Source of the DNA: Candidatus Latescibacterota bacterium
GTDB taxonomy: Bacteria > Latescibacterota > UBA2968 > UBA8231
Length of the DNA stretch: 64,000 nt
Assembly: GCA_965248265.1 (NCBI GenBank)
Contig: CBDFJF010000002.1
Coordinates: forward strand, 3,168,001-3,232,000
Direction: 5' to 3'
The number at the start of each line of letters is the position of its first letter. Position 1 is the stretch's first letter. The position numbers and the translations under genes are program-made. The notes under the pieces are model-generated. The model was not told the origin of the DNA. It did no database searches and saw only the letters and a program-made list of their open reading frames with translations. Positions 2,978 to 47,055 of this stretch are shown here, in pieces.

Positions 2978-2993
2978 GGACGAGGACGGCGTA

Positions 2994-3926: not shown

Positions 3927-3937
3927 CGGGAGGTAGA

Positions 3938-5656: not shown

Positions 5657-5657
5657 G

Positions 5658-8984: not shown

Positions 8985-9006
8985 TACTTGGAGAGGAAAG
9001 CAACCC

Positions 9007-10494: not shown

Positions 10495-10544
10495 CGCTCC
10501 AGCCACCGTCGTATTTGGCCATGCGACCGCGTTTTCGCAAGCCC

Positions 10545-11558: not shown

Positions 11559-11577
11559 GGGCGGCGGGGTCATCCAC

Positions 11578-12549: not shown

Positions 12550-12550
12550 C

Positions 12551-17144: not shown

Positions 17145-17287
17145 TAGTAATGGATACAGCGCTCCCTTAGTCTGTTCCCTCCCTGGTTGTTCTTCACCCA
17201 CCACTCGAACAGCGTGATGCGCTGGTTCCGAGCCAAATGAGTGGTGTCCCCACAGTTCAAGTATTTGTACCCCTTTGCCGGACTTCG

Positions 17288-29602: not shown

Positions 29603-29731
29603 CTTGACAATGCTTGACAATGCTCCCGTTATCAGTAACCTAGGCTGTGTTCCATGACACAGCGTAGAACGTCCCGCGAGCGTGCACAGCGTTGCCCTTT
29701 CGGTGCTCAACCCAAAATCAAATTGGATACC

Positions 29732-30364: not shown

Positions 30365-30460
30365 TGCCCTGTCACGAAAGTATTCTTGTATTCGGCCGCC
30401 GATTCATCCCGACCTGCTGCGCCCTCATTTCACAAGCCTACTTCCATGACAGGGCACTAA
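30361..30460. mobile_element. 100-bp MITE-like element with terminal inverted repeats
   Basis: TTAGTGCCCTGTCA and TGACAGGGCACTAA form a perfect 14-bp IR, extending to 22 bp with 2 mismatches. Confidence 0.65.
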
Positions 30461-33405
30461 TCTGCCGTAGATCCAAAGGCATCCGCGAACAGGAAGAAGT
30501 CGTCGAAGTCGACGATCAGGCTGGCATCAAGGTCGAAGTCGGGGTCCCACCCAAGATTCTCGTCCGTAGTTCCGAAGGCATCCGCGAACAGGAAGAAGTC
30601 CTCGAGGTCGACCCGGCCGCTGCTGTCAAAGTCAGCCGGGAGCTCGGGTCCCGGAGGCTCCTCGCCGGGGGCCAGAACGAGTACCTCGACATTCTCTGAG
30701 TCGGCTCCGTCTTGCGCGTCCGTGGCGGTAAAGGCCAGGGAGGAGGCGCCCACGAATCCCGGGATGGGGTTGATGGTGAGGGTGCGTTCCTGGGCATTCA
30801 CGATGACGGACAACCCACTGCCCGCCAATACGTTCCAGCTGATCTGGCCGACGTCTTCGTCATCCGTTACCAGGGTGTCCAGATCCAACTGTGTGGGTGA
30901 ACCGGCCTCCAGGAACAATCGCGTTAGGTCGACAATTTGAGGCGGATCATCTATGTCCAGGATCAGCACGTCAATGGTATCTGCGACACTGGAGAGATCG
31001 TCGTTGACGGCGATGATGACGGTAAACGATCCTGAGCTGTCCGGTGCAGTCCAAAGCCGTAAAACTCCCGTTTCCTGGTTGAAGTCACTGATCAGGTCGG
31101 CCGACGGTGAAATGACGAATTCCAGGTCGCCGACGTCATCGTCCGAGTCCTCGACCAGGGCATGCAGGTCCAGTTCGAGGCTGTCGTCCTCAGAGATTGT
31201 CAGCGATTGCGGCAACGTAAGCACGGGTGAATCATTGACCGCGATAACCTCAATGGTGGCCGTGTCCTGGCTCTGAGCACCGAAGGCGTCCTCGGCGCTG
31301 ATGGTGAGACTGGCGTTGCCGGAAAAGTCAGCGTCCGGTACCAGGGTAATCTGTTCGCCATCGAAGGCGATCTGCAGGCGGTCACTGGTTACCTCGATGG
31401 TCAATTCTGTATCGTCGACATCGGTGACGAATGCACTCAGTGGCCTGATGGATGTTCCATCCTCGAACATCGTGAACGGCGTTATGGCGACGACCGGCGG
31501 GTCGTTCACGGAGCTTGAAGTGATCAGGTCCGAAGACACCGTCCCAAGATCACCCTCGTCGCCAATGGTTTCGTCGTCAGCCGTAAGGGAAAACGACTCC
31601 TCATCTACGGTCGGGAAGTAGGTCAGATTGGGGAAGGTGGCGACCGCGTTCACGGCCGTCGCCGTGTTGAACTGGAGGGTCCCTGGGGCGTTCGTCGTCA
31701 GTGTGATGGCGTCGTCGAAGTCCGTGTCGAGGAAATCCAGATCATCTCGGGCTTCGACGACTGGCGGAACGTCCAACGCGATGCCGCTGATGGATCCTGC
31801 CGGCTGCGTGGTGAAGGCCAGATGGGTGGCGACAACGTCGATCTCGAGCACTCCCATAGTATCGGAATTGGCCCTTACCATTCCTCTGCCGCCCGTGGAG
31901 GTCAGCAAATCACCGGTGGCAAATGATACCCAAATCGAGTCATGCTCCGTCGCCGTCGTTTCCACCAGCGCGGAGACCAGATAGTGCCGCTCGACCCCTG
32001 AAGCGGGAGTACTAGGCGACTCCAATCCGATCGTGAAAGGGATGCCAAGCATCACATCCGAGCTGCCGATGCTGCCCACCAACTCGTCAGGGACCCCTGA
32101 GGTATCCAGGGTGGCATCCGTGCTCTCGAACAAACGGAACTCCACGAAGTTCCCAGCCACGTCAAGGTCATCGGGAAAGCCGAAAAGAGTCAATGCCAAC
32201 GAGTCGACGCTGGTGGTTCCATCGCCGGTGAAAGCGATGCTGAACAGCTGCGTCTCTCGCTGAGGGGCGCCGATGCCTCCCTGCACGGCGGAATTGTCAG
32301 GATCGATCAGGCGAATGCGGTGGTTGTCCCGGTCCGCTATGAGAATCTGGCCGAGTGAGTCGACGGTGACATCGACCGGGCTGCGTACCTGGGCATGATT
32401 GGCGGGACCACCGTCGCCGGCGTAGTCGAAGATGCCGTCGCCGGCAATGGTCGTCACGTTGCCGCGCGCGTTCACCCGGCGGACGCGTTGATTGAAGGTA
32501 TCGGCGATATACAGGTTGCCTTCTGCATCCACGAACAGGCCCCTGGGGAAGGCGAGTCCGGCGTCCGCGGGGGCACCGCCATCACCACCGAAATTTGGCA
32601 GGGAGCTGCCGGCGAGGGTGTGCATTTTGCCGTCCGAGGAAACGTAGCGAATGCGATGATTGTTGGTATCTGTTATGTACAACCGGCCTGAAGTCGAGTC
32701 GCTGAAGACACCCGAGGGACCATCGAGTTGGGCCTTTACTGCCAGGCTGTCGTCGCCGAAGAAGCCGGCCTCGCCGGTTCCGGCGAAGGTTGAGATCGAA
32801 CTGCCCGTGATCACCCGGATGCGGTGATTTCCCGTGTCGGCGACAAAGATGCTGTCCCCGTTCCCACTCACAAACAGCTGCGTTGGTGCTGACAGCCGCG
32901 CCTCGATTGCGGCACCATCGTCGCCTGAGGCCCCCGCTACTCCGGTGCCGGCGATCGTGGTGATATCGCCGTTGGCAATCAAACGAATTCGGTGGTTGCC
33001 CGAGTCAGCTACGTAGACGTTCCCGGACGGGGTCACGAATACCCCTATGGGGGCGTTGAGCTGCGCCAACGATGCCGCTGCGCCATCCCCTGAGAATCCG
33101 GCAACACCGGTGCCGGCGATGACCGCAGGGATGCCGGTGGATTCGTCGATGAAGAGGATGCGGTTGTTCCCGGTATCGGCGATATAGAGTCCGAACGGAT
33201 CGACATGGACGGCTCCGGGGAGGTCGAGGCTGGTCGTGATCCCGGTCGCGCCCACACTGCTGCCCTGGGAGCCGGTGCCGACGTTGGTCGTCATGGTCTG
33301 GGACAGGACTACGCTATAGCTCCCAACCGTGGCGGCGGCGATCAGCAGCAGCACTCCTACGGAGGATCGCCATGGTGACTTTCGAAGGCCTGCGGGAACC
33401 ATCAT
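30457..33405 (-). CDS. Secreted protein with NHL propeller, cadherin/Ig-like repeats and a C-terminal dockerin-like module
   Basis: Repeated IADTGNxRIR / AGTG.AG..GDG motifs, VNDPP/VNDSP repeats and a duplicated DFDxxGxVDxxDFFLFADAFG. The start is uncertain. Confidence 0.85.
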   Translation of the reverse strand: MMVPAGLRKSPWRSSVGVLLLIAAATVGSYSVVLSQTMTTNVGTGSQGSSVGATGITTSLDLPGAVHVDPFGLYIADTGNNRILFIDESTGIPAVIAGTGVAGFSGDGAAASLAQLNAPIGVFVTPSGNVYVADSGNHRIRLIANGDITTIAGTGVAGASGDDGAAIEARLSAPTQLFVSGNGDSIFVADTGNHRIRVITGSSISTFAGTGEAGFFGDDSLAVKAQLDGPSGVFSDSTSGRLYITDTNNHRIRYVSSDGKMHTLAGSSLPNFGGDGGAPADAGLAFPRGLFVDAEGNLYIADTFNQRVRRVNARGNVTTIAGDGIFDYAGDGGPANHAQVRSPVDVTVDSLGQILIADRDNHRIRLIDPDNSAVQGGIGAPQRETQLFSIAFTGDGTTSVDSLALTLFGFPDDLDVAGNFVEFRLFESTDATLDTSGVPDELVGSIGSSDVMLGIPFTIGLESPSTPASGVERHYLVSALVETTATEHDSIWVSFATGDLLTSTGGRGMVRANSDTMGVLEIDVVATHLAFTTQPAGSISGIALDVPPVVEARDDLDFLDTDFDDAITLTTNAPGTLQFNTATAVNAVATFPNLTYFPTVDEESFSLTADDETIGDEGDLGTVSSDLITSSSVNDPPVVAITPFTMFEDGTSIRPLSAFVTDVDDTELTIEVTSDRLQIAFDGEQITLVPDADFSGNASLTISAEDAFGAQSQDTATIEVIAVNDSPVLTLPQSLTISEDDSLELDLHALVEDSDDDVGDLEFVISPSADLISDFNQETGVLRLWTAPDSSGSFTVIIAVNDDLSSVADTIDVLILDIDDPPQIVDLTRLFLEAGSPTQLDLDTLVTDDEDVGQISWNVLAGSGLSVIVNAQERTLTINPIPGFVGASSLAFTATDAQDGADSENVEVLVLAPGEEPPGPELPADFDSSGRVDLEDFFLFADAFGTTDENLGWDPDFDLDASLIVDFDDFFLFADAFGSTAD

Positions 33406-33777
33406 CGACTTAAAAGCCCCAAACATTAAAGGAATCCGAGCAAACGTGCGATAAGTACTAGGAATAGCAACGACTACTACCTCATTTATCGTTGGCAAAC
33501 CGGAAAACCTGAGAATTAACTCAGTGATTCAAGGTCAGGCGCGGGAAATTCCGGATTCCAGGGCACGGACGAGGTGGAACGAGGTTTGCTCTCTGTGCCA
33601 GAGAGTGTGCCGCCCTGAGCGAAAATCCGCGTGGCGAGCAGACCGGTACAGGGATGCTGACAGTGAGTTGTGACAATTTACGGCTCTCGAGTGGGAATAT
33701 ATTTCCACTCGAGAGCGTCTGATAGTGTAACGGTAGGGAATGTGTGTGACATTATCTGGGAAGAATCCGTTGGCTGA

Positions 33778-36700
33778 ATGCTGCGTCTAGTCACCATCAC
33801 GGTTGTCGTCCTAGCACTCGCGGGTATGTGTGGGGCCCAATCCGTCCAGGTTTCACCCTCCGAGCTGGGCCAGGTGCCCTCCTTCTCGGCAGTGCCATAC
33901 TGGCAGCAGTTGGTGATCACCTTCGACCAGGCGGACGTGGCCAGCGACTCCACGGTGACGATCAACATGCCGCTCACGCTGCTGATCTACGACGTCAACG
34001 GTGACGGTTCGGTTCAGGATGACATCCGTTTGATGTACCAACCGGCGGGCGCGGAAACTCCAGGATTCTTCGTGTCCAGTGAATCCGCAAGCGGGCGTGT
34101 CGTCATCGGCAGCATTGCGGAGGCCGCCTTCGGTGGCCGTCTGTACGTCCAGATTCCGATTCTTATTTTCACTCCGCTGCCGGGCTCGATCCTGCGTTAC
34201 GGGGCGATAGAATTTGGCGATCCACGTGAGCGCGATCTGATCGAGGGTCCGTTTTTGACCGTGCTCTCGAACGACGAGTTCGCTCTTCTTGGCTCGATGG
34301 ATATCGCCAAGTTTGCCCCCCTGTTTGCGGCCACCGGCTCCGATACCACCACGTCGACCCTAGGGACCCTCTTTCCCGACGATGCCGGTGAAGTCCTGGC
34401 GGTCCTGCCGGATCTGGTTTTCGATGGCGGCGGCTTGAACTCCAGTGATCTACTGGGGTTTGGCAACGGAGATGACTCCGACGATACAGAATACTCCTTC
34501 CACTTCTCGAATGATGGCTCGCTTAAAGCAGTCGACTCGAGTGTGGCCACGCCTGCTCGGGCCTCGACTGGCGAGGTGTACCGCTTGACGGAGGGAGACG
34601 CCGGCGCAACGGTTCAATTCTTGACCCAGGTACTGGATGCTGGCACCTACTACCTCTACGTGACCAGCAACGTTACTGGTAGTATCCCTCTGGCTCGCAG
34701 TCGAGCCATCAGCGTGCGTCATCAACCTCAAGTGCTGTTGGCTGAACCGAGCCTCGATCTGACTCTCGACACCGGCGATCTGTACGACCTCAGCGGCGAT
34801 CCGAACGGTAACTCGGCACAGGAGGTCACGCTGTCCTACGCCGCGTTGGATCACGACGACGAGGTTTCCGTCCATCTATTCTACAGTGAACAGGCCGACC
34901 TGACGAGCAGTGATGCCAGTGTAGTGGCTGAAGGCCAGGCGCAATTGGCCGGAGCCACAGCCATCACTGAAGAGGCCCTGGTCGAAACAGAGGGCAGTCT
35001 ATCGTGGCACATCTTGGAACCGACGCCAGTGGCAGCTGGAGATTACTGGATCTACACCATGGCCGTGGGGGGCTCCGAGATTGGGCTCAAGCGCAGTGAT
35101 GGCCAGGTCCATGTCAGACACGCTCCATCCTTGAGGCTGGATGCCCTCGATGATGCGGTGCTGAGCGGTGCCAATGCCATCATCACCGGCGGCACTCGTC
35201 CACAGTCCTTCATCACCTTTACATGGGGTCGAGGAGGCAGCGATGGGGATGACGATTTCGACGGCGACGCCGAGATCGCACTGTATTACAGCAATCATGG
35301 CGCCGGTTTGGCCCCACCAGCCGAGAATGTTGAAGAGGAAACCTTTTGGGTACCGGGTGGAGCAGAAGCACTGCTGGCAGACGTTGGCGTCAACACCCAT
35401 TTGATCGTCGCCGGCCTGAACGAAGATCCAGATCAGCGGGAGGATAACCAGTTCGTCTGGGATCTGGCGAATTTGACCGACACCGCTGTACCGGAAGCCG
35501 ATCGCACCTACTACATCTATGGCATCATCTCCGATGGTGATGATGAGCGCCTGGTGCAGATGAATGGTGGTCGTCTCAATGACGCGGCCTCCCGCATCGT
35601 TTTTGAACATCCTCCGACCGTGCGTCCTCTGCAACCGGTCTCCGACATGGACGTCGCGATCGGGCGGAGTGGGCGAGTGAGTTGGCAGGATACCGATCTC
35701 GACACCCAGGCCTGGATAAGGATCATTCTCACCCAAGAGGATCACGGCGAATTTTCCGACTACGGTACCGTCACGTCCGCACCGTCCGCCTACGTGGCCA
35801 ATTCGAGTGATGGACGGGCAAGTCCCGAGGTCGATGTCGAATTCGATCTGGACGAGGACAGCGACACGGACTTCTTCGACGTCGAACCGGATAAGCTACA
35901 ACTCGGTGTCAGTGCGGACGTACCGCTGCCGCCCGGATCCTATCAGGTGTACGTCGCCATTACCGAATCGCAGACGTTTACCGATTCACCGGCATGGCGT
36001 TGCGCCGGGATCATAGAAATTGTCGAAGCGGGGGAAGGGGGCAACCAGGAGGCGGTGTTCAACCTGGCACCCCAACACTTCACACTCGGGACCAACACAC
36101 CACAACTCGTGAACGTCCGGATTGATGACGCCGATGAGTCAGTCGATCTCGTCGTCGTCCATCTCGAGATAGATGGCACCCATTTGTCGGTCGCCGACTT
36201 GGATTCGGAGACAGAAGGGATTCAGCCCTTCGCCGTGTCGCCTGGATTCAGCGCTTCGAACATGGTAATGAACACCCTCACCAATGGAAATGAGGGGGAG
36301 CTCTTTCTCGCCTTCGAGTACTTCGAGGCGACTTCGGCGCGAATCGCCGGGTTGGATGGTGTTACGTCAATAGCCTCCTTCGAGTTGGTCGCTCTGGATA
36401 ATGAGGGTGACGCCGATGTCGAACTGGTAAGCGATCCGCTCATGGATCGCCTGTCGAGGCTCGATCGTGATGGAGTCACCGTTTCCTCAGGCAGTGAATC
36501 AAGCCTGGCGACAGCTCGCATCGTCTCCGGTCGGGCACTGGTTCGGGGCACGCTGCGGCTTGAAGGACGAGACAGCTTGATCGACTCCGTCGACTTCTCC
36601 CTGCGCCCGTGGGCTAGTTACGAGAAACTCGATGACGACGTCTTCAGCGCCGCGAACGACATCGACCCCGTCAAGAGTGGAGTGCAGGTCCAGATTGCCG

Positions 36701-37830
36701 CCGACGGAGTCTTCGAGCTCATGGAGGTGCCGACCGGTCGCCTGGACATCTACGCCCACATGGACGGTTACCTGGATGCCTGGCATTCAGGTTTGGATCT
36801 GCTGCCGGCACAGGTTGTCGAGGACATCCGTCCGGTGACGCCAACCGGGGCTGTCGTTGCCGACGATTCACTGATGCTGGGTGGTGATGTGGCCGGCTAC
36901 ACTGACTTGAGCGGTCGAAGTCTTCCAGACAACGAGGTTACACTGGCCGACTGGGATTTCACCGCCGCCTTGTTCGATCGCACGGCAGCCAGTGTGGGAG
37001 ACAGCGCGAGAGCCGACATCACCGGGGATGGTTTCATCAACGTTAGAGATCTGGCTCTGGTCGGAGCAAACTTCCTGCGCCGAGGACCTCGACCGGTTTA
37101 CAAGGTGGCGCCCCAATCCGAATCATCGCCTCATGCGCTGCTGCGAGTCGAATACAGATCGGGCACGGATGACAACGCTTTTGTGGAGCTGTGGGGGGAT
37201 CGAATATCCGCCGTGGCTGCCTGTCAGTTCGATCTGGCATTCTTACCTGGTGCCTGGAAGATCCTGGAGGTGGTGCCTGGAGCCAGGGGCTCCATGGCGG
37301 TGCACAGGCACAATGCCAATGGTCACAAGGTAGCAGCCGTACTCATGGACGGACATCTGTCAACGGATGTTCCACTGATGAGCTGGCGACTGCAGGCTCT
37401 ACAGGCCGAGCCGAGTCCACCGACACTTGCCGGTGCGCTCTTACTGGATCGCTCCCACCGAGAAATCGTTGCTGAAGTGGTTTCGACGCCAGCCGGGCAG
37501 ACTGAGCCCCAACCCCTCCACTTCGGGCTGAGTCAGAACTTTCCAAACCCGTTCAACCCGGAAACGACCATTGGCTTCACTGTTCCGGCGATGGTGGGGA
37601 GGGTGGCATCCGAGCCGCACGTGCAACTCGAAGTGTATAACTCGGTGGGACAGTTGGTTGCCCAGCTCGTCGACGGAGCGTTCGCGCCCGGGCCGCACAC
37701 CGTGCACTGGGATGGACATGACAGGGACGGTTTGACCGCCGGCAGCGGCGTCTATTTCTATCGTCTGCATATCGTCAGTGATGATGCCGGCAGCCGCACC
37801 CTGGTGCGGCGCATGCTGCTGCTAAGGTGA
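33778..37830 (+). CDS. Giant secreted protein with cohesin-like, dockerin-like and FlgD/T9SS-like C-terminal domains
   Basis: Signal peptide, DNEVTLADW...ADITGDGFINVRDLALVGANF, and QNFPNPFNPETTI..VYNSVGQ..WDG..SGVYFYRL. Confidence 0.85.
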   Translation: MLRLVTITVVVLALAGMCGAQSVQVSPSELGQVPSFSAVPYWQQLVITFDQADVASDSTVTINMPLTLLIYDVNGDGSVQDDIRLMYQPAGAETPGFFVSSESASGRVVIGSIAEAAFGGRLYVQIPILIFTPLPGSILRYGAIEFGDPRERDLIEGPFLTVLSNDEFALLGSMDIAKFAPLFAATGSDTTTSTLGTLFPDDAGEVLAVLPDLVFDGGGLNSSDLLGFGNGDDSDDTEYSFHFSNDGSLKAVDSSVATPARASTGEVYRLTEGDAGATVQFLTQVLDAGTYYLYVTSNVTGSIPLARSRAISVRHQPQVLLAEPSLDLTLDTGDLYDLSGDPNGNSAQEVTLSYAALDHDDEVSVHLFYSEQADLTSSDASVVAEGQAQLAGATAITEEALVETEGSLSWHILEPTPVAAGDYWIYTMAVGGSEIGLKRSDGQVHVRHAPSLRLDALDDAVLSGANAIITGGTRPQSFITFTWGRGGSDGDDDFDGDAEIALYYSNHGAGLAPPAENVEEETFWVPGGAEALLADVGVNTHLIVAGLNEDPDQREDNQFVWDLANLTDTAVPEADRTYYIYGIISDGDDERLVQMNGGRLNDAASRIVFEHPPTVRPLQPVSDMDVAIGRSGRVSWQDTDLDTQAWIRIILTQEDHGEFSDYGTVTSAPSAYVANSSDGRASPEVDVEFDLDEDSDTDFFDVEPDKLQLGVSADVPLPPGSYQVYVAITESQTFTDSPAWRCAGIIEIVEAGEGGNQEAVFNLAPQHFTLGTNTPQLVNVRIDDADESVDLVVVHLEIDGTHLSVADLDSETEGIQPFAVSPGFSASNMVMNTLTNGNEGELFLAFEYFEATSARIAGLDGVTSIASFELVALDNEGDADVELVSDPLMDRLSRLDRDGVTVSSGSESSLATARIVSGRALVRGTLRLEGRDSLIDSVDFSLRPWASYEKLDDDVFSAANDIDPVKSGVQVQIAADGVFELMEVPTGRLDIYAHMDGYLDAWHSGLDLLPAQVVEDIRPVTPTGAVVADDSLMLGGDVAGYTDLSGRSLPDNEVTLADWDFTAALFDRTAASVGDSARADITGDGFINVRDLALVGANFLRRGPRPVYKVAPQSESSPHALLRVEYRSGTDDNAFVELWGDRISAVAACQFDLAFLPGAWKILEVVPGARGSMAVHRHNANGHKVAAVLMDGHLSTDVPLMSWRLQALQAEPSPPTLAGALLLDRSHREIVAEVVSTPAGQTEPQPLHFGLSQNFPNPFNPETTIGFTVPAMVGRVASEPHVQLEVYNSVGQLVAQLVDGAFAPGPHTVHWDGHDRDGLTAGSGVYFYRLHIVSDDAGSRTLVRRMLLLR

Positions 37831-37846
37831 GGGAAGGGGGGAGTCG

Positions 37847-40800
37847 ATGATGGGTTTACGCACTGACATGGCGCCTGCAAGCGCAAGAGGATTGATCCTC
37901 ACGGCCGTGATCGCCTTGTTGTCCTTCTCCCCGGCGTTGGTGGATGCCGCACAGATTGATCTGCGTGTCCAGGGATTGCCACCCGGGGCCGATCTCACCC
38001 ACGATATTGAGCTTGGAGATGAACTCGTCGTGGACGTCGTGATCGAAGCAGGTAGCGAGGAAGAGATCACCGGGTTTTCCCTCTTCATTTCCTACGACAA
38101 CGAAGTATTTGCCCTGATGCCGGCAGTGGAAGCCAGCGATCAAGAGACCTTGCAGCCCTTCGAGCCTGGTGGGTACCTCAACGGCGTTCCCTTGTTGAAT
38201 CGCCTCGAGGAAGTGGAGGGGGACACCGAGTCCTTCATCGCTTACGCCGAAGCCTCCGGGGTCTCGCGAGAGGTCGCCACCGGCAGTGGTGTGGCAGCTA
38301 GATTTCGCCTCGAGGTTCTGCGCCGGCCGTTGGGTGATCTCTCCCAGATCGTCGTGGAGGAGCGTGGTCACGATCGGTTTTCCCACTATGTCACCGCCGC
38401 GACCCCAGGAACGGAGAGGCGCTTCGACCAACCAGGAACCCTGTCATTCCGAGTAACCGGATTCCGCGTCAAGTCGCTTCCGGATCAAGTGCTCGTAGAA
38501 GGTGAGGCCTCTTCCGTATTCATCCTGAATGATTTCGTCGACCAGGAGGGAGGACGCATCCTCTGGTCGGCCACCCGACTGAGTGAATTGCCGACGTCGA
38601 TCGACGAAGAGTCCACGCAGGTCACGATCACCCCTCAGATAGGCGGCTTTGGTTCAGGTCCCAATCGCAATGCCAGTCGTCGCATGATCTTTACCGCCTT
38701 CGAGACCGGTGAGGGGCTGACAGCCGCCGACACCATCGACATCGTCGTCAACGCGCGTCCGCAGATCGGTGAAGCCATGCGTGACACCGTCCGCTTTGCC
38801 GAAGACGGCTCGACCACGCGGGACCTCGATGGATTCGTCGCCGATGCCGACGACCTGAACGCGGACCTGTCCTGGACGGCCACGACTTCCGGAAATGTCA
38901 TGGTGTCGATCAACCCGGAGACCAGAGTGGCGACCTTTACGGCCGCGCCCGACTGGTACGGCAATGAAGAGGTGGTCTTTCGGGTCGCCGATGGGGATGC
39001 ACTTGATGACGTGGGCACTACCGTCGTTTCCGTAGCGCCCGTAAACGATCCACCGGTGGCTGGTCGCCTCGAGCCAGTCTACCCGCCCAGCGGTTCATCC
39101 GGGGTGGCCATCCCGTTGTCTGATCTGATCAGCGACCGGGATGATGAGCTAACCGACTTGGAGATCACGCCTGAAGTCGAGGGGTCGGCCACAGCGCGGA
39201 TATCACCAGACGGCACAGCGCTTATAGTCAGTGGGGACGAAGCGGGTCGCAGCGTCATTCGCTTGACGGTCACCGACACCTCGGGTGCCACTGCCCAGAC
39301 TCGACAGGTTGCGGTAGTTCTGGGGCCGAATGAGCAGGTTGCACCGGAGATTCTCAGTCTGCCACAGGTGCAGCTGCGCGCCGGCACATTCACCACCTTG
39401 AGTCTGAACCCATTCGCGCGAGATGATCAGCCCGTGAGCAATCTGATCTGGGCTAGCGTAGCGCCCGACGAGTTGCTGGATACCATCGGCTCAGATAATG
39501 TTTTGCGGGTTGACGCGGACGCCTCGTTCTCGGGGGAGTCGGTCGTCGTGTTGGTGGCGACAGACCAGGCAGGGCTCACCGACACGGCGACGCTGCCCGT
39601 GCAGGTGGCGGGTGAGGGTCAAGACCTTCCACCCCTGATATCGCTACCGGGCAAGATCGGTGTGGTCGGGGAGGACGAATCATCAACTCCGACTGAAGTC
39701 GCGTTGGATCCTCTCGTCATCGACCTCGATGATGTTGACAGCCAGATTCAGTGGGAGGTGTTCACGTCGAGTCCGGGACTCGTCATCAATATTGACGAAG
39801 ATAGAACGCTGATGGTCAGTGCCGGCGCTGATTTTGCTCAGGGCGGATCTGGAATAGGGTCCATCTCGCTGATCGCCCGCAACACCAAGGATCTTGCAGA
39901 TACGGCTGCCGTTCCAGTGATCGTCTCCGTCCCAGGGCAAGAGCCGCAGATGGCACCGTTGCCCGACGTCACCCTGGACAGCCTGGCCGCCGAGGTACGC
40001 GTCGATCTGGATGAGTTCGTCTTTGACGCGGACGACTTCGATTCAGAGGTCTTCATGGTGACGGATCATGATCCGGGCGTCGTCGTCGATGTCGATCCGG
40101 TGACTCACGAAATTACGGTACGTCGCGTGGAGGAGAGCGGACGACCCCTTCCCAGTACGTCCGTGCGAGTTTCCGCCGTTGACACGGATGGTGGCTCCTC
40201 GGTAACCCGCATATTGACTATTCAACTGCCGCCGATCTTCAGCTTGAGTGCCATCCCGGACATTGAATTCTTCGAAGGGGAGGACGCCAGCCTGGATCTT
40301 GACGATCATGTGGCTCAACCCGATCCACCTCCACCGCTGTCCTGGTCCGTCGGTCCGACACAGCATCTTGAAGTCCGTATTGATCCGTTGACGCACCGGG
40401 CATTCATCGAGCCCTCCAATGCCGATTTCGTCGGCAGTGAGGTGTTGACCTTCGACGCCATGGACGAGACTGGACGCACCCGCAGCGGCACGGTCAAAGT
40501 CACCGTCAAAAGCCGCGGCCTGGCCCCCGAGATTCGCGACCTGCCAACGATAGAACTGCAGGCAGGCGGCACTGATCGCAGCATTGATCTGGATCAGTTT
40601 GTCTTCGACGATGATCCGGACGACGCACTTCGGTGGACCTTTACGCAGCCTCCGAGCCTGGAGGTCTTCGTCGATCCGGCCACGAACGAGGTCACGATAA
40701 CGGCGCAGGAGGCCGCGGTCGGGCTCGAGCAGGTGCAATTTGCCGTCCAGGATCCAGCCGGGAACACCGACATCGGCGTGCTCGAGGTTATGGTCGTCAG

Positions 40801-42034
40801 AGGCGGCCTGCCGCCGCAGATCAGCGGCCTGCCGCAGATCACCCTGCTGGCGGGAGCTCCGGAGCAATCGTTGTCACTGGATCTGTACGTGACTGACACG
40901 GACACGCCGGACGATCAAATAGTCTGGGTGGTTCGCAGTGAACCCGGAGTGAACGCCCGCATCCAGGACCGACGCCTGTTCCTCTCGGTTCCAGCAGGGC
41001 AGGAAGGTGGGCGACAGCTCACGCTGACGGCCACCGACCCTCAGGGCAACGAGGCTGAGGCTGTCCTCCAGCTTACGATCGAGTTGGATGCTCAAGCACC
41101 TCGATTGAGCCTGGAGATCAAACGCAATCCTGTGGTAGCGGATCTGATAGAGGTCATCGTGACTTCGGACGAATCCTTACCGCAGGCGCCTGGGGTGCGG
41201 ATCAATGGCGCTGAGGTCGAGGTCTTGACGCTCGCCGATGACAGCCTCTTTGTGGCGGCTACGACGATATCTCCCTCAGGGGAGTTGCAGTTGCTCGAAG
41301 TGCTGGCCGAAGGCGCTGACCGAGCCGGAAATGTGAGTACCCGCGAATTGACGGTGGCTTTACGGTGGATGATCGACGAAGGAGGGACGGTACCGTACAC
41401 GGATGGCGTGGCGATCGCCAACGTTCCCGATGCCGCTGCCGGACCGAGACGCCTGGCCATCCTCTACCGCCTGGGAGAAGAGGAGACCCCCCCGGAGAGT
41501 GCGGGTGAGCCGGTCTACGCGATCGATCTGGACAGTGGCGAGCCAGTCATGGATCCCTACACCATCAACCTGTTCCAAGGCGAACGGTCGGGTCAGGGGC
41601 GCGGCCTGCTGCGTTGGGAGCCCTCGAGGCAGGTGTGGGAGGAAGTTCCGACGATCGTGGATGAGGCTGCCGGATGGCTGACGGCTTCCATTCGCGAATC
41701 AGGCCTTTATCGCCCAGGGGCGGTCGCCAGCACCAACACGCGGCCAACCCAGAAGCTGGCCAATCATCCCAATCCGTTTCCTTCTGCCGGGAGCGACAAC
41801 ACGCAGATCGAGTACGAGATGTCCGTCGCCGGACCAGTCCGACTGGAAGTCTTCAACGTTCTCGGGCAGCGGGTGCGCCTGCTGGTCGATGAGTCGTTCC
41901 AGGATGTCGGCGTGTGGACGGTAGTTTGGAACGGAAGAGACGACGCCGGGAGAACGCTCGGCAGTGGCGTCTATTTCTATGAACTCGCGGAACAGCAGGG
42001 AGTCCAGTGTCGTTCGCTGGTGTTGTTCCGTTAG
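37847..42034 (+). CDS. Giant secreted protein with an N-terminal cohesin-like domain, cadherin-like repeats and a FlgD-like C-terminal domain
   Basis: GDELVVDV..ITGFSLFISYD..GSGVAARFRL, many LDxxVxDxD..LxW repeats, and NHPNPF..WNGRD..SGVYFY. Confidence 0.85.
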   Translation: MMGLRTDMAPASARGLILTAVIALLSFSPALVDAAQIDLRVQGLPPGADLTHDIELGDELVVDVVIEAGSEEEITGFSLFISYDNEVFALMPAVEASDQETLQPFEPGGYLNGVPLLNRLEEVEGDTESFIAYAEASGVSREVATGSGVAARFRLEVLRRPLGDLSQIVVEERGHDRFSHYVTAATPGTERRFDQPGTLSFRVTGFRVKSLPDQVLVEGEASSVFILNDFVDQEGGRILWSATRLSELPTSIDEESTQVTITPQIGGFGSGPNRNASRRMIFTAFETGEGLTAADTIDIVVNARPQIGEAMRDTVRFAEDGSTTRDLDGFVADADDLNADLSWTATTSGNVMVSINPETRVATFTAAPDWYGNEEVVFRVADGDALDDVGTTVVSVAPVNDPPVAGRLEPVYPPSGSSGVAIPLSDLISDRDDELTDLEITPEVEGSATARISPDGTALIVSGDEAGRSVIRLTVTDTSGATAQTRQVAVVLGPNEQVAPEILSLPQVQLRAGTFTTLSLNPFARDDQPVSNLIWASVAPDELLDTIGSDNVLRVDADASFSGESVVVLVATDQAGLTDTATLPVQVAGEGQDLPPLISLPGKIGVVGEDESSTPTEVALDPLVIDLDDVDSQIQWEVFTSSPGLVINIDEDRTLMVSAGADFAQGGSGIGSISLIARNTKDLADTAAVPVIVSVPGQEPQMAPLPDVTLDSLAAEVRVDLDEFVFDADDFDSEVFMVTDHDPGVVVDVDPVTHEITVRRVEESGRPLPSTSVRVSAVDTDGGSSVTRILTIQLPPIFSLSAIPDIEFFEGEDASLDLDDHVAQPDPPPPLSWSVGPTQHLEVRIDPLTHRAFIEPSNADFVGSEVLTFDAMDETGRTRSGTVKVTVKSRGLAPEIRDLPTIELQAGGTDRSIDLDQFVFDDDPDDALRWTFTQPPSLEVFVDPATNEVTITAQEAAVGLEQVQFAVQDPAGNTDIGVLEVMVVRGGLPPQISGLPQITLLAGAPEQSLSLDLYVTDTDTPDDQIVWVVRSEPGVNARIQDRRLFLSVPAGQEGGRQLTLTATDPQGNEAEAVLQLTIELDAQAPRLSLEIKRNPVVADLIEVIVTSDESLPQAPGVRINGAEVEVLTLADDSLFVAATTISPSGELQLLEVLAEGADRAGNVSTRELTVALRWMIDEGGTVPYTDGVAIANVPDAAAGPRRLAILYRLGEEETPPESAGEPVYAIDLDSGEPVMDPYTINLFQGERSGQGRGLLRWEPSRQVWEEVPTIVDEAAGWLTASIRESGLYRPGAVASTNTRPTQKLANHPNPFPSAGSDNTQIEYEMSVAGPVRLEVFNVLGQRVRLLVDESFQDVGVWTVVWNGRDDAGRTLGSGVYFYELAEQQGVQCRSLVLFR

Positions 42035-42045
42035 GTGATTTGACC

Positions 42046-45000
42046 ATGAATACCGAATCGAAATTCGAGCCGGGAACGGCCAGACGCGTAGCCGGACAGT
42101 GTCTGCTGGTGTTGCTATGGCTGGCGGGGTGGGCCGCGGCGGGGCAGAATACCTGGACGGCCACCGGCAGTCTGGGCTCCGACATCAACGCCATTGTACC
42201 GCATCCGCAGGATGCGGGTACCCTGTACGCGGTTGGTGAAGACGGTGTTTTCCGGTCCATCGACGGCGGTGAGTGGGTCTCCATCAGCGAAGGCCTTGCC
42301 GCCTCGACGGTATTGAGCCTGGCTATCGACGGGCAAGATGCCAACCGTCTGTACGCTGGCTTGAATGCCGGTCTCTACACCAGCGGTGATGGCGGTCAAA
42401 CATGGACCCTCGTCGACGCCGTGGGGCCGGGTGTGCTGTCCTTGGCGATCGGACCAGAGGGGTTGGTGTACGCAGGCACCCTGGGGCGCGGCATCTACGT
42501 CAGCGAGAATGCCGGCGTTGATTGGCGCATCCCGGTTGAGCTCTCATCCTCGTTGATCTTCGATCTCACGGCATCACCGGTTGACGGTACGGCCTACGCC
42601 GCAACCGCGTCCGGTCTGTACCGTACCCAGGATGGTGGTTTGAGCTGGAATCTTGTGGGATTTGATCTGGCTGAGTTGAGCATTCGTGACATCGATCTGT
42701 CGAAGGAGGATGTCGAGACTCTGTTCGTTGCGACCTTTGGAGGGGGTGTTTTCAAAAGCCTGGATTTCGGTGTTCACTGGACGGCCCTCAATCAAGGGCT
42801 GGATGATCTGTCCGTTCGCTCCATCGAGGTGGCTCGCCGGGACCGGCTGCTGTACGCGGCGACGTCGACGGGGGGGTTCTACCGTTCGTCGGACGCCGGC
42901 CAATCCTGGAACCCGGTCAACGACGGACTATCCTCGCTCACGGCACGCACGACCTACCACGCTGACGATCCGGATCAAGACCGGCTATTCGGGGCAGGAC
43001 CGGCACCGGGCGTGTTCGAGATCACCTTCGCTCCAGAGCCAGACATTCAGGTAGATTCGGCGATCCTCGATTTTGGCGAAATCTCGGTGGGTGTCGTGCA
43101 ACAGCTAGCCGTATCGATTTCGAATTCCGGGGACGCAGATCTACAGATCTCGAGCTTGAGTACTATCAGAAACGGACCGTTCGTGCCACAGGCGGATGCA
43201 GTCCCGTTCGTGATTCCGGCAGGGGGAAGCATAGACCTGGCGATCACCTTTCAACCCCAGGAGGGCGGTGACGAGGCTGACACGCTGACCATTCGCAGCG
43301 ACGATCTGGACAGTCCCGAACTGGAGGTTGCCCTGCGGGGAATCGGCGTCCGCGCTGATTTGCGAGTAGGGGGATCGGGGACGGGGATGGATTTTGGTGA
43401 GGTGCGGGTGGGCGATACCGCAGACACGACCATCGTCATCAACAATATTGGCAACGCAGCTGTCGTCCTCTCGGGCGCCTCGGTCGATGACGACACCTTC
43501 CAGGTGCTCTCATTCGAGGTCGTGGAGGTTCAGGCGCTTGGCAGTGTCTTTGTCCGACTTCGTTACTCTCCGGTGCAACCGCAGGCCAATGCCACCACCC
43601 TCGTAATCTTGACTACCGAGCCGAGCCAGCCGCGTTTCGAGTTACCCCTGCTAGGCACCGGCACCTCTCCCGCGATCGAAGTGCTGCCCGATGAACTGCT
43701 ATTCGGCAACGTCAACCTCGGTCGAGAGACCCGCTTGCTGTTGTCGGTAGCCAACAACGGTAACGCGGACCTGCAGGTGACAGGCCTCGAGATCGACGGA
43801 GATGCCTTCAGGCTGGAGCGCTCGGTCTCAGAGGCGAATCCGATCGTGGTGGCGCCAGGAGGAGCACAGCTTCTGGACGTCGTATTCCTGCCGTTGATCA
43901 GTGGCGCCCATCGGGGCACCCTGACCGTCGTCAGCGATGCACCCGAATCCCCCATCGAGATCTCTTTGTTGGGAACGGGCGGTGCCCTCGACCTGACGCC
44001 AAAGAATCCTGTGGAGGCCGGGACGGATCCCGTGGACTTGATCGTCCTGGATGTGGATGCGGATGGAGATCACGACCTGACCACCATCGACGAAACCTCC
44101 ATCCATGTTCTGCTCAATGATGGAACAGGGGCGTTTCCGCAAGTCGATCGCGTTGCCTACCCGGCTGCGGACTCGCCGTATTCCGAGTGGGATGCCCCGG
44201 TCGCGATAGCCGCAGCGCCCGTGTTCGGCCAGTCTCCTGATTTGATCGTCGCCGACCAGGCGGGACAGGTCGTTTCCATCGTCGCCAACGACGCTCAGGG
44301 TGGCTTCAGCCTGGAACGACAAGACGTGTTCATCGGCCATGCCATAACCGCCGTGATGCCGCTGGACGTTGACGCGGACGGCGACATCGACATAGCCGTT
44401 GCCGATGGGGACAGCCCCAGTATCACGATTCTGCTCAACAATGATGAGGCTGGATTCAACGCCCGCACCTCCATAGCCGTGGAGGACGGCCCGAGAGCCC
44501 TGACGGCCGCCAACCTGAACGACGACGGTCACATCGATCTCGTCGTCGCCAATGAAGACGCCGGAACGGTGTCCATATTACTGTCAGATCGCCAGGGCGG
44601 CTTTTCCGTGCCAAGGCAAGACATCCTCGTCGGCATCGCCCCCATTGCTCTGGGTGTCGTCGACTACGATGCGGACGGAGACAACGACATATTCAGTGCC
44701 AATGCAGGCTCACGCGACGTCTCCATCGTCGAGAGCGACGGGGATGGGGTTTTCGCCCTGGGTTCGCGCATCTCCACGGTGATGCAGCCAACGGGGTTGT
44801 CCTTGTCTGATTTAACCCGTGACGTCTTCGCTGATCTGGTGGTCTCCGGGGATGGTGATCCATTCCTGAGCTTCTTCGAGAATGATGCCGGAGCTGCGTT
44901 CACGGCAAAAGACGTGGTGCCGGCCAGTGCAGCCGCACTGCGAGTCGTCATCGCTGACATGAATGGTGATGGCAACAACGACATCGTCTCTCTCAGCCAA

Positions 45001-47055
45001 GCGACGGTCCGCGTTTTCATCAACGAAGACACCCGCGTCATGGATCCCCCGCGTCCGCCAACGCAGGTCACGGCAGACGATGTTGCCCGTGATTTGGGTC
45101 GCCAGATTGAGATAACCTGGGACGCTCCCGAGTTGGACGAGCAGATCGGCCGGACTACTGAATACCTGATTTTTCGCGCAGAGGACGAGGATGGTCCTTT
45201 CGTCGAGTTGGGTCGTCGGTCCGCTGGTGAGAGAGACTTCATCGATGACGCGGCGACCTTGTCTCAGACCTTCTACTATTTTGTCCAGGCTGGTAACGCC
45301 GCCCTTCAGTCGGGCAACTCAGATACCGTATCCGCCGCATCCAGGCCGGCGCCGTTCTTTGAGCTCGAACTGATCAACGAACCCCGCATCAGCGTCGGTG
45401 ACACTCTCAAGGTGCGGGCTTTGCTGACTCCGGCGGTGCATGACGTTGCCGGGATCTCCCTCTATCTGACCTACGATGACAGCGCCCTGACCCTCATCGA
45501 CGCTGACTCCACCTCCGCAGCCCTGGTGCCGTTCAGATTGGACACCACCCTGACGGCCGGCAGTCTCGTGGAGAACCGGCTTCATCCCAGCACGAGCGAC
45601 AAGATCGATATCTCGTTGACCTCACTGCAGATTTCAAACGGCGTACAACCCGTATCGCTCGGCGAGATTTGGTTCCGTACGTTGAAAGACAGGACGACAC
45701 CGCTGACCATCGACGATGAGGACGCCCTCAACCGTCGCAGCGCCGTGGTCGAGCAGGTGACGGGAAACTGGATTCTGCCTTTCATCCCGAGCCGTCAGAC
45801 TCAGGTTTCCATCAGAGATTTCCAGGTCAGCGGCAGCCTTGAACTGGAGGGCCGGGCGGCCGATAACCTGGGATTGCAGGCGACGATCACCCTCGTCGAC
45901 TCCGCCGGTGGCAGGCTGGAGTCACCGCTGAACGACGAAGATGCCGAGCGGCCTCTGATTCAGTCCACCCTCACCGTCGACGGACAGTTCGAACTCAACC
46001 AGATTCCGCGTGGCAGCTATCGGATTTTTGCCAAGACGCCGAGTCATCTACAGGGGCAGGTCGTAGGGGACACAGTCACCATCGGTGACTCCCTGCGCAC
46101 GATGCTGAGGTTTGCCTGGATGCGCTCGGACTCGACGGTCACGTCCATTCTCCCCGCGGGTGATGCCAACGACGACAATCGGGTCAATCTGGCGGATTAC
46201 GGGCTGCTGGTAAGGCATTTCGACTCCAATTCGTCTGACATCAGCGTTTGGGATGAAGCGCAGATGGTGGACTTCAATGGCGACAATTTCGTCAACGCCA
46301 CCGACTTCTTCCTGCTGGCGCAAAACTTCGGTGAGATCGGCATGGGTTTTTCCGTCACAGCGGCCAAGCGTTCAGCCAGGGGTTGGGTCTCCTTCGACGA
46401 CGATCGGGAGGCGATCGCAGTCGGTGAGGTCGGCGCCATTCGAGGATACTCGCTGAAAGTCCTCATCGGCGGTTCGCCCCGACATGCCGGGCAGCAGGTC
46501 ATCGATGCGCTTGGAGGGAGCCTGTTCTCCGGCGATGATTCGATGGCACATGTGTGGCCGGTGGATGGAGGATCTGCCATCATCGTGGCCGTGGCCATGC
46601 GAGATCCAACCAGGACGATCGACGCTACGGAAGGAGTTCTTGCGCGCTTCAACGAAGCGATATCAGGAGGCGAAGCACCGAGTCTCCGGATCCTGGATGC
46701 GGAAGTTCTGCTTTCGGATTGGAGTGTGGCCAACCCGGAGATCCGGCAATCACGGGCGCTGCCGACTTCGACCTTCCTGCTCCAGAATTACCCCAATCCG
46801 TTCAATCCCTCGACCGTCATTCCGTTTGAGCTGGCCGCGGGAGACGGGTCGGCGAGGGTCACGCTGGAGGTATTCAATTTGCTCGGGCAACGGATTCGGA
46901 CCCTCGTTGATGCGAGGGTGCGTCCGGGGGCGCATGAAGTCGTCTGGGATGGCAGGGACCGTGAAGGACGTGCCGCCGCTTCCGGCATCTACATCTATCG
47001 TCTTTCGATCGGGGGGAGTCAATTGCTCTCCCGCCGCCTGCTGCTAGTACACTGA
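42046..47055 (+). CDS. Giant secreted protein: BNR propeller, three ASH/choice-of-anchor-D domains, FG-GAP, FN3, cohesin-like, dockerin-like and FlgD-like C-terminal domain
   Basis: SxDGGxTW repeats, DFG.V..NxGxA repeats, DVDADGD repeats, GDANDDNRVNLAD...DFNGDNFVNATDFFLLAQNFG and QNYPNPFNPST. Confidence 0.88.
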   Translation: MNTESKFEPGTARRVAGQCLLVLLWLAGWAAAGQNTWTATGSLGSDINAIVPHPQDAGTLYAVGEDGVFRSIDGGEWVSISEGLAASTVLSLAIDGQDANRLYAGLNAGLYTSGDGGQTWTLVDAVGPGVLSLAIGPEGLVYAGTLGRGIYVSENAGVDWRIPVELSSSLIFDLTASPVDGTAYAATASGLYRTQDGGLSWNLVGFDLAELSIRDIDLSKEDVETLFVATFGGGVFKSLDFGVHWTALNQGLDDLSVRSIEVARRDRLLYAATSTGGFYRSSDAGQSWNPVNDGLSSLTARTTYHADDPDQDRLFGAGPAPGVFEITFAPEPDIQVDSAILDFGEISVGVVQQLAVSISNSGDADLQISSLSTIRNGPFVPQADAVPFVIPAGGSIDLAITFQPQEGGDEADTLTIRSDDLDSPELEVALRGIGVRADLRVGGSGTGMDFGEVRVGDTADTTIVINNIGNAAVVLSGASVDDDTFQVLSFEVVEVQALGSVFVRLRYSPVQPQANATTLVILTTEPSQPRFELPLLGTGTSPAIEVLPDELLFGNVNLGRETRLLLSVANNGNADLQVTGLEIDGDAFRLERSVSEANPIVVAPGGAQLLDVVFLPLISGAHRGTLTVVSDAPESPIEISLLGTGGALDLTPKNPVEAGTDPVDLIVLDVDADGDHDLTTIDETSIHVLLNDGTGAFPQVDRVAYPAADSPYSEWDAPVAIAAAPVFGQSPDLIVADQAGQVVSIVANDAQGGFSLERQDVFIGHAITAVMPLDVDADGDIDIAVADGDSPSITILLNNDEAGFNARTSIAVEDGPRALTAANLNDDGHIDLVVANEDAGTVSILLSDRQGGFSVPRQDILVGIAPIALGVVDYDADGDNDIFSANAGSRDVSIVESDGDGVFALGSRISTVMQPTGLSLSDLTRDVFADLVVSGDGDPFLSFFENDAGAAFTAKDVVPASAAALRVVIADMNGDGNNDIVSLSQATVRVFINEDTRVMDPPRPPTQVTADDVARDLGRQIEITWDAPELDEQIGRTTEYLIFRAEDEDGPFVELGRRSAGERDFIDDAATLSQTFYYFVQAGNAALQSGNSDTVSAASRPAPFFELELINEPRISVGDTLKVRALLTPAVHDVAGISLYLTYDDSALTLIDADSTSAALVPFRLDTTLTAGSLVENRLHPSTSDKIDISLTSLQISNGVQPVSLGEIWFRTLKDRTTPLTIDDEDALNRRSAVVEQVTGNWILPFIPSRQTQVSIRDFQVSGSLELEGRAADNLGLQATITLVDSAGGRLESPLNDEDAERPLIQSTLTVDGQFELNQIPRGSYRIFAKTPSHLQGQVVGDTVTIGDSLRTMLRFAWMRSDSTVTSILPAGDANDDNRVNLADYGLLVRHFDSNSSDISVWDEAQMVDFNGDNFVNATDFFLLAQNFGEIGMGFSVTAAKRSARGWVSFDDDREAIAVGEVGAIRGYSLKVLIGGSPRHAGQQVIDALGGSLFSGDDSMAHVWPVDGGSAIIVAVAMRDPTRTIDATEGVLARFNEAISGGEAPSLRILDAEVLLSDWSVANPEIRQSRALPTSTFLLQNYPNPFNPSTVIPFELAAGDGSARVTLEVFNLLGQRIRTLVDARVRPGAHEVVWDGRDREGRAAASGIYIYRLSIGGSQLLSRRLLLVH

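Follow-up and report, generated by a model that had tools for sequence, protein, structure and literature searches.

A conserved locus of four giant proteins in Latescibacterota and its possible role as a type IX secretion-anchored cohesin-dockerin adhesion complex

Four neighbouring genes in a 64-kb stretch of a Candidatus Latescibacterota genome (contig CBDFJF010000002.1 of assembly GCA_965248265.1, positions 3,168,001 to 3,232,000; the window hereafter) encode giant proteins, here called A, B, C and D like their genes. With moderate confidence, we propose that these proteins would form a calcium-dependent cohesin-dockerin adhesion complex, which would be anchored by a type IX secretion system (T9SS) and would hold A, the member without a C-terminal sorting domain (CTD), on the cell. 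Cohesin-dockerin pairs are understood almost wholly from Gram-positive cellulosomes. By the statistics of sequence comparison, the dockerin and cohesin modules of the locus are real, and what is new is a conserved, enzyme-free set of four genes with a distinctive cassette in which a cohesin, an X-like domain, a dockerin, a further cohesin-like domain and a CTD follow one another (Coh-X-Doc-Coh-CTD); cohesin-dockerin surface models as such are already in print.

Gene A (30457-33498, minus strand) is divergent from the co-directional genes B (33778-37830, 1350 aa), C (37847-42034, 1395 aa) and D (42007-47055), all three on the plus strand. These four giant open reading frames (ORFs), one divergent to three, had been drawn in a preliminary description of the same DNA and stand at the same coordinates in the ORF list. 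The A frame spans 1013 aa, and its probable start is M25 (nucleotide 33426), giving 989 aa, the length of a database copy (P0342) that favours this choice. The D frame of 1682 aa opens with a GTG at 42007 and probably starts at the ATG at 42046. Counted from that ATG, the C-D spacer is 11 nt, the B-C spacer is 16 nt, and with such operon-like spacing B, C and D look like a single transcription unit. All four N-termini show a basic stretch followed by a hydrophobic one. The proteins are very acidic (isoelectric point 4.05-4.18, about 4.1; Asp plus Glu 14-16%) with zero to three cysteines, and the G+C content is flat over the whole cluster region. Modules were identified by profile comparison throughout the window; among its 559 ORFs of at least 60 aa, the CTD, cohesin-like, dockerin-like and X-like profiles match A to D only.

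The dockerins were assessed by the presence of Asp or Asn at loop positions 1, 3, 5, 9 and 12 followed by a helix, and this pattern is found in both loops of A and D, which align with the two loops of the solved dockerin 2y3n_B, and partly in B. The dockerin of D (46150-46341, plus strand, aa 1382-1445), with two canonical loops, passes the Pfam Dockerin_1 model (PF00404, cut-off 22.9 bits) at 36.1 bits as a segment and 28.1 bits in the whole protein. As a single sequence it matches 2y3n_B at 1.6e-4 with both calcium loops aligned, and Dockerin_1 is matched in 20 of the 22 rows of the D alignment, which comprises 18 D orthologues and four shorter paralogues. The dockerin of A lies at the extreme C-terminus (30460-30642, minus strand, aa 953-1013) and consists of two repeats of a 12-residue calcium loop plus helix. 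It gives no Pfam match; the last 74 residues of A match 2y3n_B at E 5.6e-4 (14-72 aligned to 5-63, both repeats), its family profile is linked to that of the D dockerin at 97.6% by hhalign, and the motif is kept in all 24 rows of the A family. That of B (36880-37080, plus strand, aa 1035-1101) has an insertion in its first loop and a canonical second loop, scores 19.0 bits in the whole protein and 18.7 bits as a segment through the second repeat alone, and is linked by its family profile to the D dockerin at 97.1%. The acidic loop positions are retained in the dockerin family consensus and the helices differ among A, B and D. Besides, no module of B or D is better conserved than the dockerin, with mean pairwise identities of 0.65 in B and 0.67 in D versus 0.49 and 0.51 for the whole proteins.

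The cohesin assignment is made because several methods agree, each with a modest E-value and none with a decisive score. The profiles were compared by hhalign (66 comparisons), eight cohesin segments that pass Pfam serving as reference and all cross-class controls remaining at or below 5.1%. On this scale, the N-terminal module of C (37958-38461, plus strand, aa 38-205) reaches 95.0%; its window copy scores 12.5 bits (E 0.17) with Pfam Cohesin (PF00963, cut-off 24.1), which is matched at E<=1 in 13 of 36 C-family members (best 5.1e-4). The first module of D (45349-45810, plus strand, aa 1115-1268) reaches 94.2%, with a Pfam E-value of 0.0064 (17.1 bits) and a hidden Markov model (HMM) match at 3.6e-7 to P0157, a distant member of the B family. 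It is also through P0157 that the first module of B (36049-36522, plus strand, aa 758-915) is linked to the family, since it aligns onto the Pfam-passing cohesin of that protein. Its HMM matches P0157 at 6.6e-8 and another relative, P0100, at 8e-14, and hhalign places it at 88% to C and 87% to the first module of D. The second module of B (37093-37527, plus strand, aa 1106-1250), located between dockerin and CTD, reaches 96.8% to the reference cohesins and matches P0100 (1.1e-12), P0095 (1.3e-7) and P0092 (2.1e-7). In the same vein, distant B homologues carry a Pfam-passing cohesin behind the dockerin, just ahead of the CTD. At the equivalent positions in relatives, Pfam-passing cohesins are found in P0157 (25.6 bits) for module 1 and in P0092 (42.8 bits), P0100 (32.2 bits) and P0095 (30.7 bits) for module 2. 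A domain of D at the same position as the second module of B (46357-46782, plus strand, aa 1451-1592) is possibly a second cohesin. These second domains are the least conserved modules, with a mean pairwise identity of 0.29 in B and 0.36 in D.

A comparison with solved structures points in the same direction. When the modules of C, B and D were combined into a profile with the corresponding ones of two related loci, cohesins were the five best of its seven matches in the PDB, headed by 5g5d_A (0.002), 1g1k_A (0.03) and 2vn5_A (0.037). Upon addition of one Pfam-passing cohesin from a further locus (L041), cohesins became the nine best of 15 matches, the best at 4.1e-4. For P0104, a protein with a Pfam cohesin, the PDB search matched dockerins only. 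The L041 cohesin belongs to an 812-aa protein (L041 9548-11983) with cadherin-like domains behind its N-terminal cohesin and a CTD, a miniature of the C architecture; it was rejected as a C orthologue, only the CTDs being alignable, and is an architectural analogue.

In both B (36538-36849) and D (45832-46128), on the plus strand, a beta-sandwich with a weak CarboxypepD_reg match stands directly before the dockerin. The two sandwiches are homologous (hhalign 99%) and were compared with the solved dyads of X module and dockerin (X-Doc). Positions 975-1100 of the B family match the X-Doc chains 4u3s_B, 5g5d_B, 4wi0_B and 2b59_B with E-values of 7e-4 to 1.5e-3, and positions 1301-1422 of the D family match 4wi0_B (4.3e-7) and 4u3s_B (1.2e-5), the single D sequence giving 1.2e-3. 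The X-like domain and dockerin of B and D thus resemble, at marginal E-values, the X-Doc dyads of clostridial scaffoldins. With the X-like sandwich and the second cohesin-like domain, the cassette of B and D therefore reads Coh-X-Doc-Coh(-like)-CTD. Among the 150 best cluster representatives matched by the D cassette (P0125-P0273), the full arrangement is present in 25 and a C-terminal X-Doc or Doc tail in a further 62, a census that is biased by profiles made from the families themselves. As a side observation, it suggests a general split into anchors and passengers among the proteins that these phyla secrete.

By sequence statistics, B, C and D end in a CTD of the T9SS type, at 37528-37827, 41762-42031 and 46783-47052, respectively (all plus strand), and these domains share 44-48% identity with one another. 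The FlgD_ig model (cut-off 27 bits) is passed by B (32.6) and D (34.1). C stays under it at 19.4 bits; its CTD is recognized by the B-family CTD profile at 5.3e-23, and FlgD_ig is matched in 35 of 36 C-family members. The B domain also matches the CTD of PorU (6za2_A) at 0.0064. Relatives carry PF18962, and some orthologues of B and C are named 'T9SS type A sorting domain-containing protein' at NCBI. In the window, ABC transporter genes of GldA-, GldF- and GldG-like type lie at 3938-10494 with a DUF4340 gene behind them, the ABC genes all scoring under their NCBIfam equivalog cut-offs. At 1108 aa, the GldG-like protein is of unusual length and has extra DUF7088 and DUF4350 domains.

Besides these modules, the proteins carry putative binding heads and stalks. 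From its N-terminus, A is composed of a signal peptide, an NHL propeller, a middle domain, three cadherin-like repeats and the dockerin, and has no CTD. The six-bladed propeller (32179-33276, minus strand, aa ~75-440 of the 1013-aa ORF) matches Pfam NHL at 1e-33, and the family profile matches solved NHL propellers such as teneurin-like and PknD-derived ones, which are binding propellers. The middle domain (31507-32178, minus strand, aa 441-664) is of no recognized family, since Pfam gives nothing at E<=10 and hhalign does not link it to other modules of the cluster; the cadherin-like or Big_9 ('tandem-95') repeats at 30667-31506 (minus strand) were assigned by domain models and profiles. The stalk of C (38762-41122, plus strand) comprises about eight or nine cadherin-like or Big_9 repeats, followed by a pre-CTD domain (41123-41761, plus strand, aa 1093-1305) of no recognized family, residues 1080-1310 giving no Pfam match. 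D begins with a single BNR/Asp-box propeller of the sortilin/Ycf48/GH74-like kind (42139-43026), continues with three ASH/HYDIN-type Ig domains (choice-of-anchor D; 43027-43986), both assigned by domain models and PDB profile, and then with FG-GAP repeats and an Fn3-like domain (43987-45291; Pfam and PDB profile), all on the plus strand.

The N-terminal part of B is of another kind. Its unique first domain (33838-34377, plus strand, aa 21-200) falls into no recognized family and is followed at 34378-36033 (plus strand, aa 201-752) by four homologous repeats in tandem, each about 120-160 aa long. In hhalign these repeats are related at 79-97% overall (96.8% between the first and second, 97.2% between the second and third, 87.9% between the third and fourth). 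The approximately 730 residues from aa 20 to 749 have neither a Pfam match at E<=10 nor a sequence match in the PDB. The repeats are strongly conserved in the B family, with many invariant Asp, Trp, Tyr and Gly residues and a recurring 'V-R-H-x-P' boundary motif.

Taken over the four proteins, the module inventory bears out in part what the preliminary description had proposed. Its A, an NHL propeller with a C-terminal duplicated dockerin-like module and no sorting domain, is recovered by Pfam NHL, the 2y3n_B match and the lack of a CTD, and its C, a cohesin-like domain with a long cadherin-like stalk and a CTD, by hhalign (95.0%), the Big_9 repeats and the CTD profile. The distribution of CTDs, in B, C and D and not in A, was likewise confirmed (FlgD_ig in B and D, CTD profile in C), and profile comparison supports the cohesin and dockerin ranges that it had put forward for an HMM check, though only the D dockerin passes Pfam. 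In B and D, the cohesin-like module, dockerin-like module and CTD that it listed were all found by profiles; the list was incomplete, the X-like sandwich and the cohesin-like domain behind the dockerin having been overlooked. Finally, its idea of A as a CTD-less passenger, which needs its dockerin to stay on the cell, is supported by this inventory.

The locus is not a peculiarity of one genome. Full-length orthologues exist for all four proteins, at about 40-88% identity. Among the matches listed, B has at least 86 relatives (at 32-84% identity, with 90% or more of the B length covered in 82) and A at least 23 (coverage of at least 83%, none with a precomputed CTD family); there are 41 orthologue rows for C, and the D orthologues lie at 38-88% identity. 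Where named, the relatives are mostly Candidatus Latescibacteria or Latescibacterota, some being labelled Gemmatimonadota, Planctomycetota or Handelsmanbacteria, and some cluster members are marine metagenome fragments. As regards gene linkage, a first profile scan of genome contigs found no relative, and a second returned 79 loci, of which only L001 and L066 hold true orthologues, the others being CTD-only matches. In L001, B is followed 5 nt on by C (42% identity over 772 aa). In L066, C is followed by D and then by a partly shared downstream neighbourhood with a short-chain dehydrogenase/reductase (SDR), DapF (70%), an SprT-like protein and a TolB/Omp85-like protein (60%). The synteny in relatives that the preliminary description had proposed to check is thus directly visible for B-C and for C-D. 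Besides, identical longest-contig sizes suggest same-contig pairs for B/C (13), A/B (12), B/D (5), C/D (4) and A/D (1), and the NCBI locus tags of B- and C-like genes are consecutive (ACI8PG_003863/003862), those of B- and A-like genes three steps apart (HN712_21175/21190). We read the four genes as a vertically inherited locus of a Latescibacterota-like organism.

How such proteins might work together can be outlined from their modules. B, C and D would be exported and fixed to the outer surface by the T9SS, and the calcium-loaded dockerins of A, B and D would plug into the cohesins of C, B and D. All four proteins would thereby join in one hetero-complex, in which A would be retained on the cell via its dockerin and C would display its cohesin at the tip of the cadherin-like stalk. 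Such a complex would expose several ligand-binding heads: A would contribute its NHL propeller, B its repeat array, and D its BNR and FG-GAP propellers together with its ASH Ig domains. The likely use of the complex would be adhesion to particles, polymers or other cells rather than catalysis. By analogy with CipA and its anchoring proteins, the likeliest wiring would put the X-Doc parts of B and D onto the C cohesin, and the plain dockerin of A onto the first cohesin of either B or D. These pairings are a conjecture, proposed because the closest solved analogues of the X-Doc dyads and of the cohesin profile, 5g5d_B and 5g5d_A, are the two partner chains in anchoring complexes of type II.

The clostridial anchoring pair (2b59, 3kcp, 5g5d, 4wi0, 4u3s) is indeed the nearest solved comparison. 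Type II cohesin-dockerin pairs attach the scaffoldin to the cell surface, according to the review PMC12484212. B and D follow the same order of cohesin, X-like sandwich and dockerin, their family profiles match X-Doc chains and the cluster cohesin profile best matches the partner chain 5g5d_A, while C, with its cohesin, spacer and surface anchor, follows the logic of an anchoring scaffoldin. Among the differences, the organism here is Gram-negative, from the Fibrobacteres-Chlorobi-Bacteroidetes (FCB) group, and a T9SS-type CTD takes the place of an S-layer homology (SLH) or sortase anchor. Moreover, enzymes, a carbohydrate-binding module (CBM) and a tandem cohesin array are absent here, B and D are self-anchored and bear a further cohesin-like domain behind the dockerin, and the similarity is marginal (E 1e-3 to 1e-7).

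Several observations weigh against a T9SS-anchored adhesion complex. Concerning the modules, no cohesin-like module of the window reaches the Pfam cut-off (D 17.1 bits, C 12.5 bits, no score for B modules 1 and 2 and D module 2), Cohesin does not rank among the top 25 Pfam families by matches in the D alignment of 22 rows, and the whole-protein profiles of the C and B families find no significant solved cohesin in the PDB. The first module of B is at only 0.6% to the Pfam-passing reference cohesins in hhalign, and the domain behind the D dockerin, at 41.5% to B module 2 and 15.9% to the reference, has no HMM match to the cohesins of relatives. The B dockerin is the weakest of the three, with its non-canonical first loop and a single-sequence PDB search that was not significant. 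Concerning anchoring, TIGR04183 (T9SS type A sorting domain, cut-off 23 bits) scores 18.6 in B, 20.9 in C and 21.5 in D, all under its cut-off, and no gene of the T9SS machinery (Por, Spr) was recognized in the 64-kb window. B and D already have an anchor of their own, and their dockerins are therefore not needed for retention. Finally, pairing genes on the same contig by equal contig sizes is indirect.

Two propellers also bring enzymes to mind. The first propeller of D resembles GH74 enzymes in the PDB profile search (8e-29), and that of A exceeds the cut-off of the lactonase-type SGL model (29.1 versus 26.3 bits), both of which speak against a purely adhesive complex; for A, NHL scores 114 bits versus those 29.1 for SGL. 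We considered D as a GH74 xyloglucanase and rejected it, given that only about 290 aa (positions 39-320) align, whereas GH74 chains have 715-789 aa in two seven-bladed propellers. The same stretch aligns to either the first or the second GH74 propeller, Ycf48, DAIP and sortilin match it too, and the NCBIfam model F510_1955 scores 96.8 bits versus a cut-off of 175. No complete catalytic domain was found in A to D by Pfam, NCBIfam and PDB profile searches. Hence, the initial claim that the proteins have no glycoside hydrolase or protease motif holds as far as complete catalytic domains go and has to be amended for the GH74-like propeller of D and the SGL match of A. The unassigned parts B 21-752, A 441-664 and C 1093-1305 could hide an activity.

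Enzymes could also come from elsewhere. In this alternative, which we regard as rather unlikely, the cohesins of B, C and D would mainly capture dockerin-bearing hydrolases encoded at other loci, in the manner of a cellulosome or of the 'planctosome'. The four or five cohesin-like modules of the cluster outnumber its three dockerins, and the (X-)Doc tails that end 62 of the 150 representatives would fit such partners. In L022, which like L041 comes from a related FCB-group metagenome-assembled genome, an M14 carboxypeptidase (L022 10673-12277) ends in a Pfam-passing dockerin, lacks a CTD and is flanked by CTD proteins; as an analogous architecture, it also speaks for the adhesion complex. Models of this type are in print for Cloacimonadota and Planctomycetes. 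In Ca. Stygibacter (Cloacimonadota), a cellulosome-like complex has been described in silico, with a 3755-aa scaffoldin that combines tandem cohesins, CBMs and a T9SS CTD and with CTD-less enzymes (GH18, GH57, S8, C25) as dockerin partners (PMC8542988). For freshwater Planctomycetes, the 'planctosome' is presented as a hypothetical assembly of a cohesin-bearing anchoring protein and an adaptor with dockerin plus cohesin (PMC6461901). In addition, PMC7424252 and PMC7081726 attribute dockerin genes in Latescibacteria to Farag et al. 2017. Against an enzyme-recruiting scaffold, neither the cluster nor the 64-kb window contains a dockerin-bearing enzyme (no catalytic Pfam or NCBIfam domain is found on the dockerin proteins), a CBM or tandem cohesins, each protein having one or two cohesins and no array. 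On these grounds, as far as the window shows, the locus does not qualify as a cellulosome, though it would act like the anchoring level of one. Moreover, three dockerins are conserved, along with the cohesins, on non-enzymatic proteins.

A second alternative denies any assembly and appears unlikely to us. The proteins would be independent adhesins whose cohesin- and dockerin-like modules act in cis, as calcium-stabilized spacers or as an intramolecular clasp, and A would simply be secreted. B and D each have a dockerin between cohesin-like domains with short linkers, which makes intramolecular pairing possible, and the weak cohesin scores go along with this view. Cohesin and dockerin modules outside cellulosomes, whose role is not known, are reportedly widespread, a statement that goes back to Peer et al. 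in 2009. However, the dockerin of the CTD-less A is conserved in every row of its family (24/24), the four genes remain together over many contigs and in B and D conservation is highest in the dockerin, all of which argue against independent adhesins. As for a head-to-tail polymer of B and D through their own cohesins and dockerins, giving a lattice or sheath in which C would be the spacer and A a passenger, it is quite improbable in spite of the presence of both module types in B and in D and of the cassette in 25 of 150 representatives, since B and D are each separately anchored by a CTD, and free polymerization would therefore be limited.

Compared with the published models, the adhesion complex suggested here for A to D has both relatives and peculiarities, and the preliminary description overstated its case in presenting it as a candidate for an undescribed system, given the in-silico precedents in PMC8542988, PMC6461901 and bioRxiv 10.64898/2026.03.19.712371. 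The Ca. Stygibacter complex has in common with ours a candidate phylum of the FCB group, a non-catalytic CTD-anchored cohesin protein, CTD-less partners with a C-terminal dockerin and a purely in-silico basis (PMC8542988). The present locus differs by its four co-conserved neighbouring genes, the absence of enzymes and the occurrence of cohesin and dockerin within the same chains. The 'planctosome' is likewise a non-cellulosomal cohesin-dockerin model, in another phylum and with a lamin-tail anchor and recruitment of peptidases (PMC6461901). In the green sulfur epibiont of a phototrophic consortium (Chlorobiota, likewise of the FCB group), surface pairing has been proposed from a structure model for the products of two neighbouring giant genes, Cag_2037 and Cag_2038 (bioRxiv 10.64898/2026.03.19.712371). 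One has an N-terminal cohesin and an Ig-like stalk, as in C, and the other an Ig-like stalk and a C-terminal dockerin, as in A. That system differs by its export through a type I secretion system (T1SS) with an RTX domain, its epimerase/lyase head and its two genes instead of four, and it has no Coh-X-Doc-Coh-CTD cassette. Our literature search, which did not include Farag et al. 2017, Peer et al. 2009 or supplements, found no paper on cohesin, dockerin and Latescibacteria or on Latescibacter and T9SS.

Some features of the surrounding DNA complete the picture. In the A-B intergenic region, a near-perfect palindrome of 34 nt (33683-33716; 17-nt arms, 94% complementary) lies 62 nt upstream of the B ATG. 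As RNA it is predicted to fold markedly better than shuffled sequences (z = -6.05), and a role as operator or as leader hairpin is possible. Elsewhere in the window the half-site has one chance-like match only, and it is not repeated upstream of other genes. Scans for promoters and terminators gave no signal above chance, and those for tRNAs, Rfam families and tandem DNA repeats were negative. Downstream of the cluster, a 952-aa protein (window 50611-53469) has a peptidase-MA-like region joined to TolB-like PD40 repeats and an Omp85-type barrel, with a counterpart of 60% identity at the same place in L066. The ORFs that flank the cluster at 24529-26163, 27084-27950, 28023-28595, 29654-30364 and 47877-48500 have no Pfam family; among them, only 24529-26163 has an NCBIfam match, weak and GT-C-like, and 47877-48500 has a 32%-identical counterpart in L066. 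Further away, the ABC genes lie within a MoxR/DUF58/BatA-BatD-type (aerotolerance-like) set that also includes VWA and TPR proteins (window 1886-16926), and a MurG-like GT28 glycosyltransferase of 700 aa is fused to C-terminal HEAT repeats (window 17237-19339).

To conclude, our results bring to light a set of four genes that is kept together, with full-length proteins, in a widespread uncultured phylum, and that is free of enzymes and equipped with T9SS-type anchors. One may go further and ask whether an enzyme-free, T9SS-anchored and calcium-dependent 'adhesome' or envelope layer is a core feature of Latescibacterota-type cells, whether its cassette is a general self-linking anchor of many T9SS cargo proteins across FCB candidate phyla, and whether cohesin-dockerin pairing is a primary route of surface building in Gram-negative bacteria rather than an accessory of polysaccharide degradation; we hold this generalization to be doubtful at present. 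Even if the modules did not bind, the cluster would still be a conserved set of giant adhesin-like proteins, and residues 201-752 of B would in either case be a repeat family without a name or known relatives. If they bind as proposed, the locus would provide a testable model of how an adhesive surface is built and an anchorless protein retained on it, and would offer protein assembly work new cohesin-dockerin pairs that are probably orthogonal. It would also extend the type-II-like anchoring logic of X-Doc dyads to organisms that rely on the T9SS.

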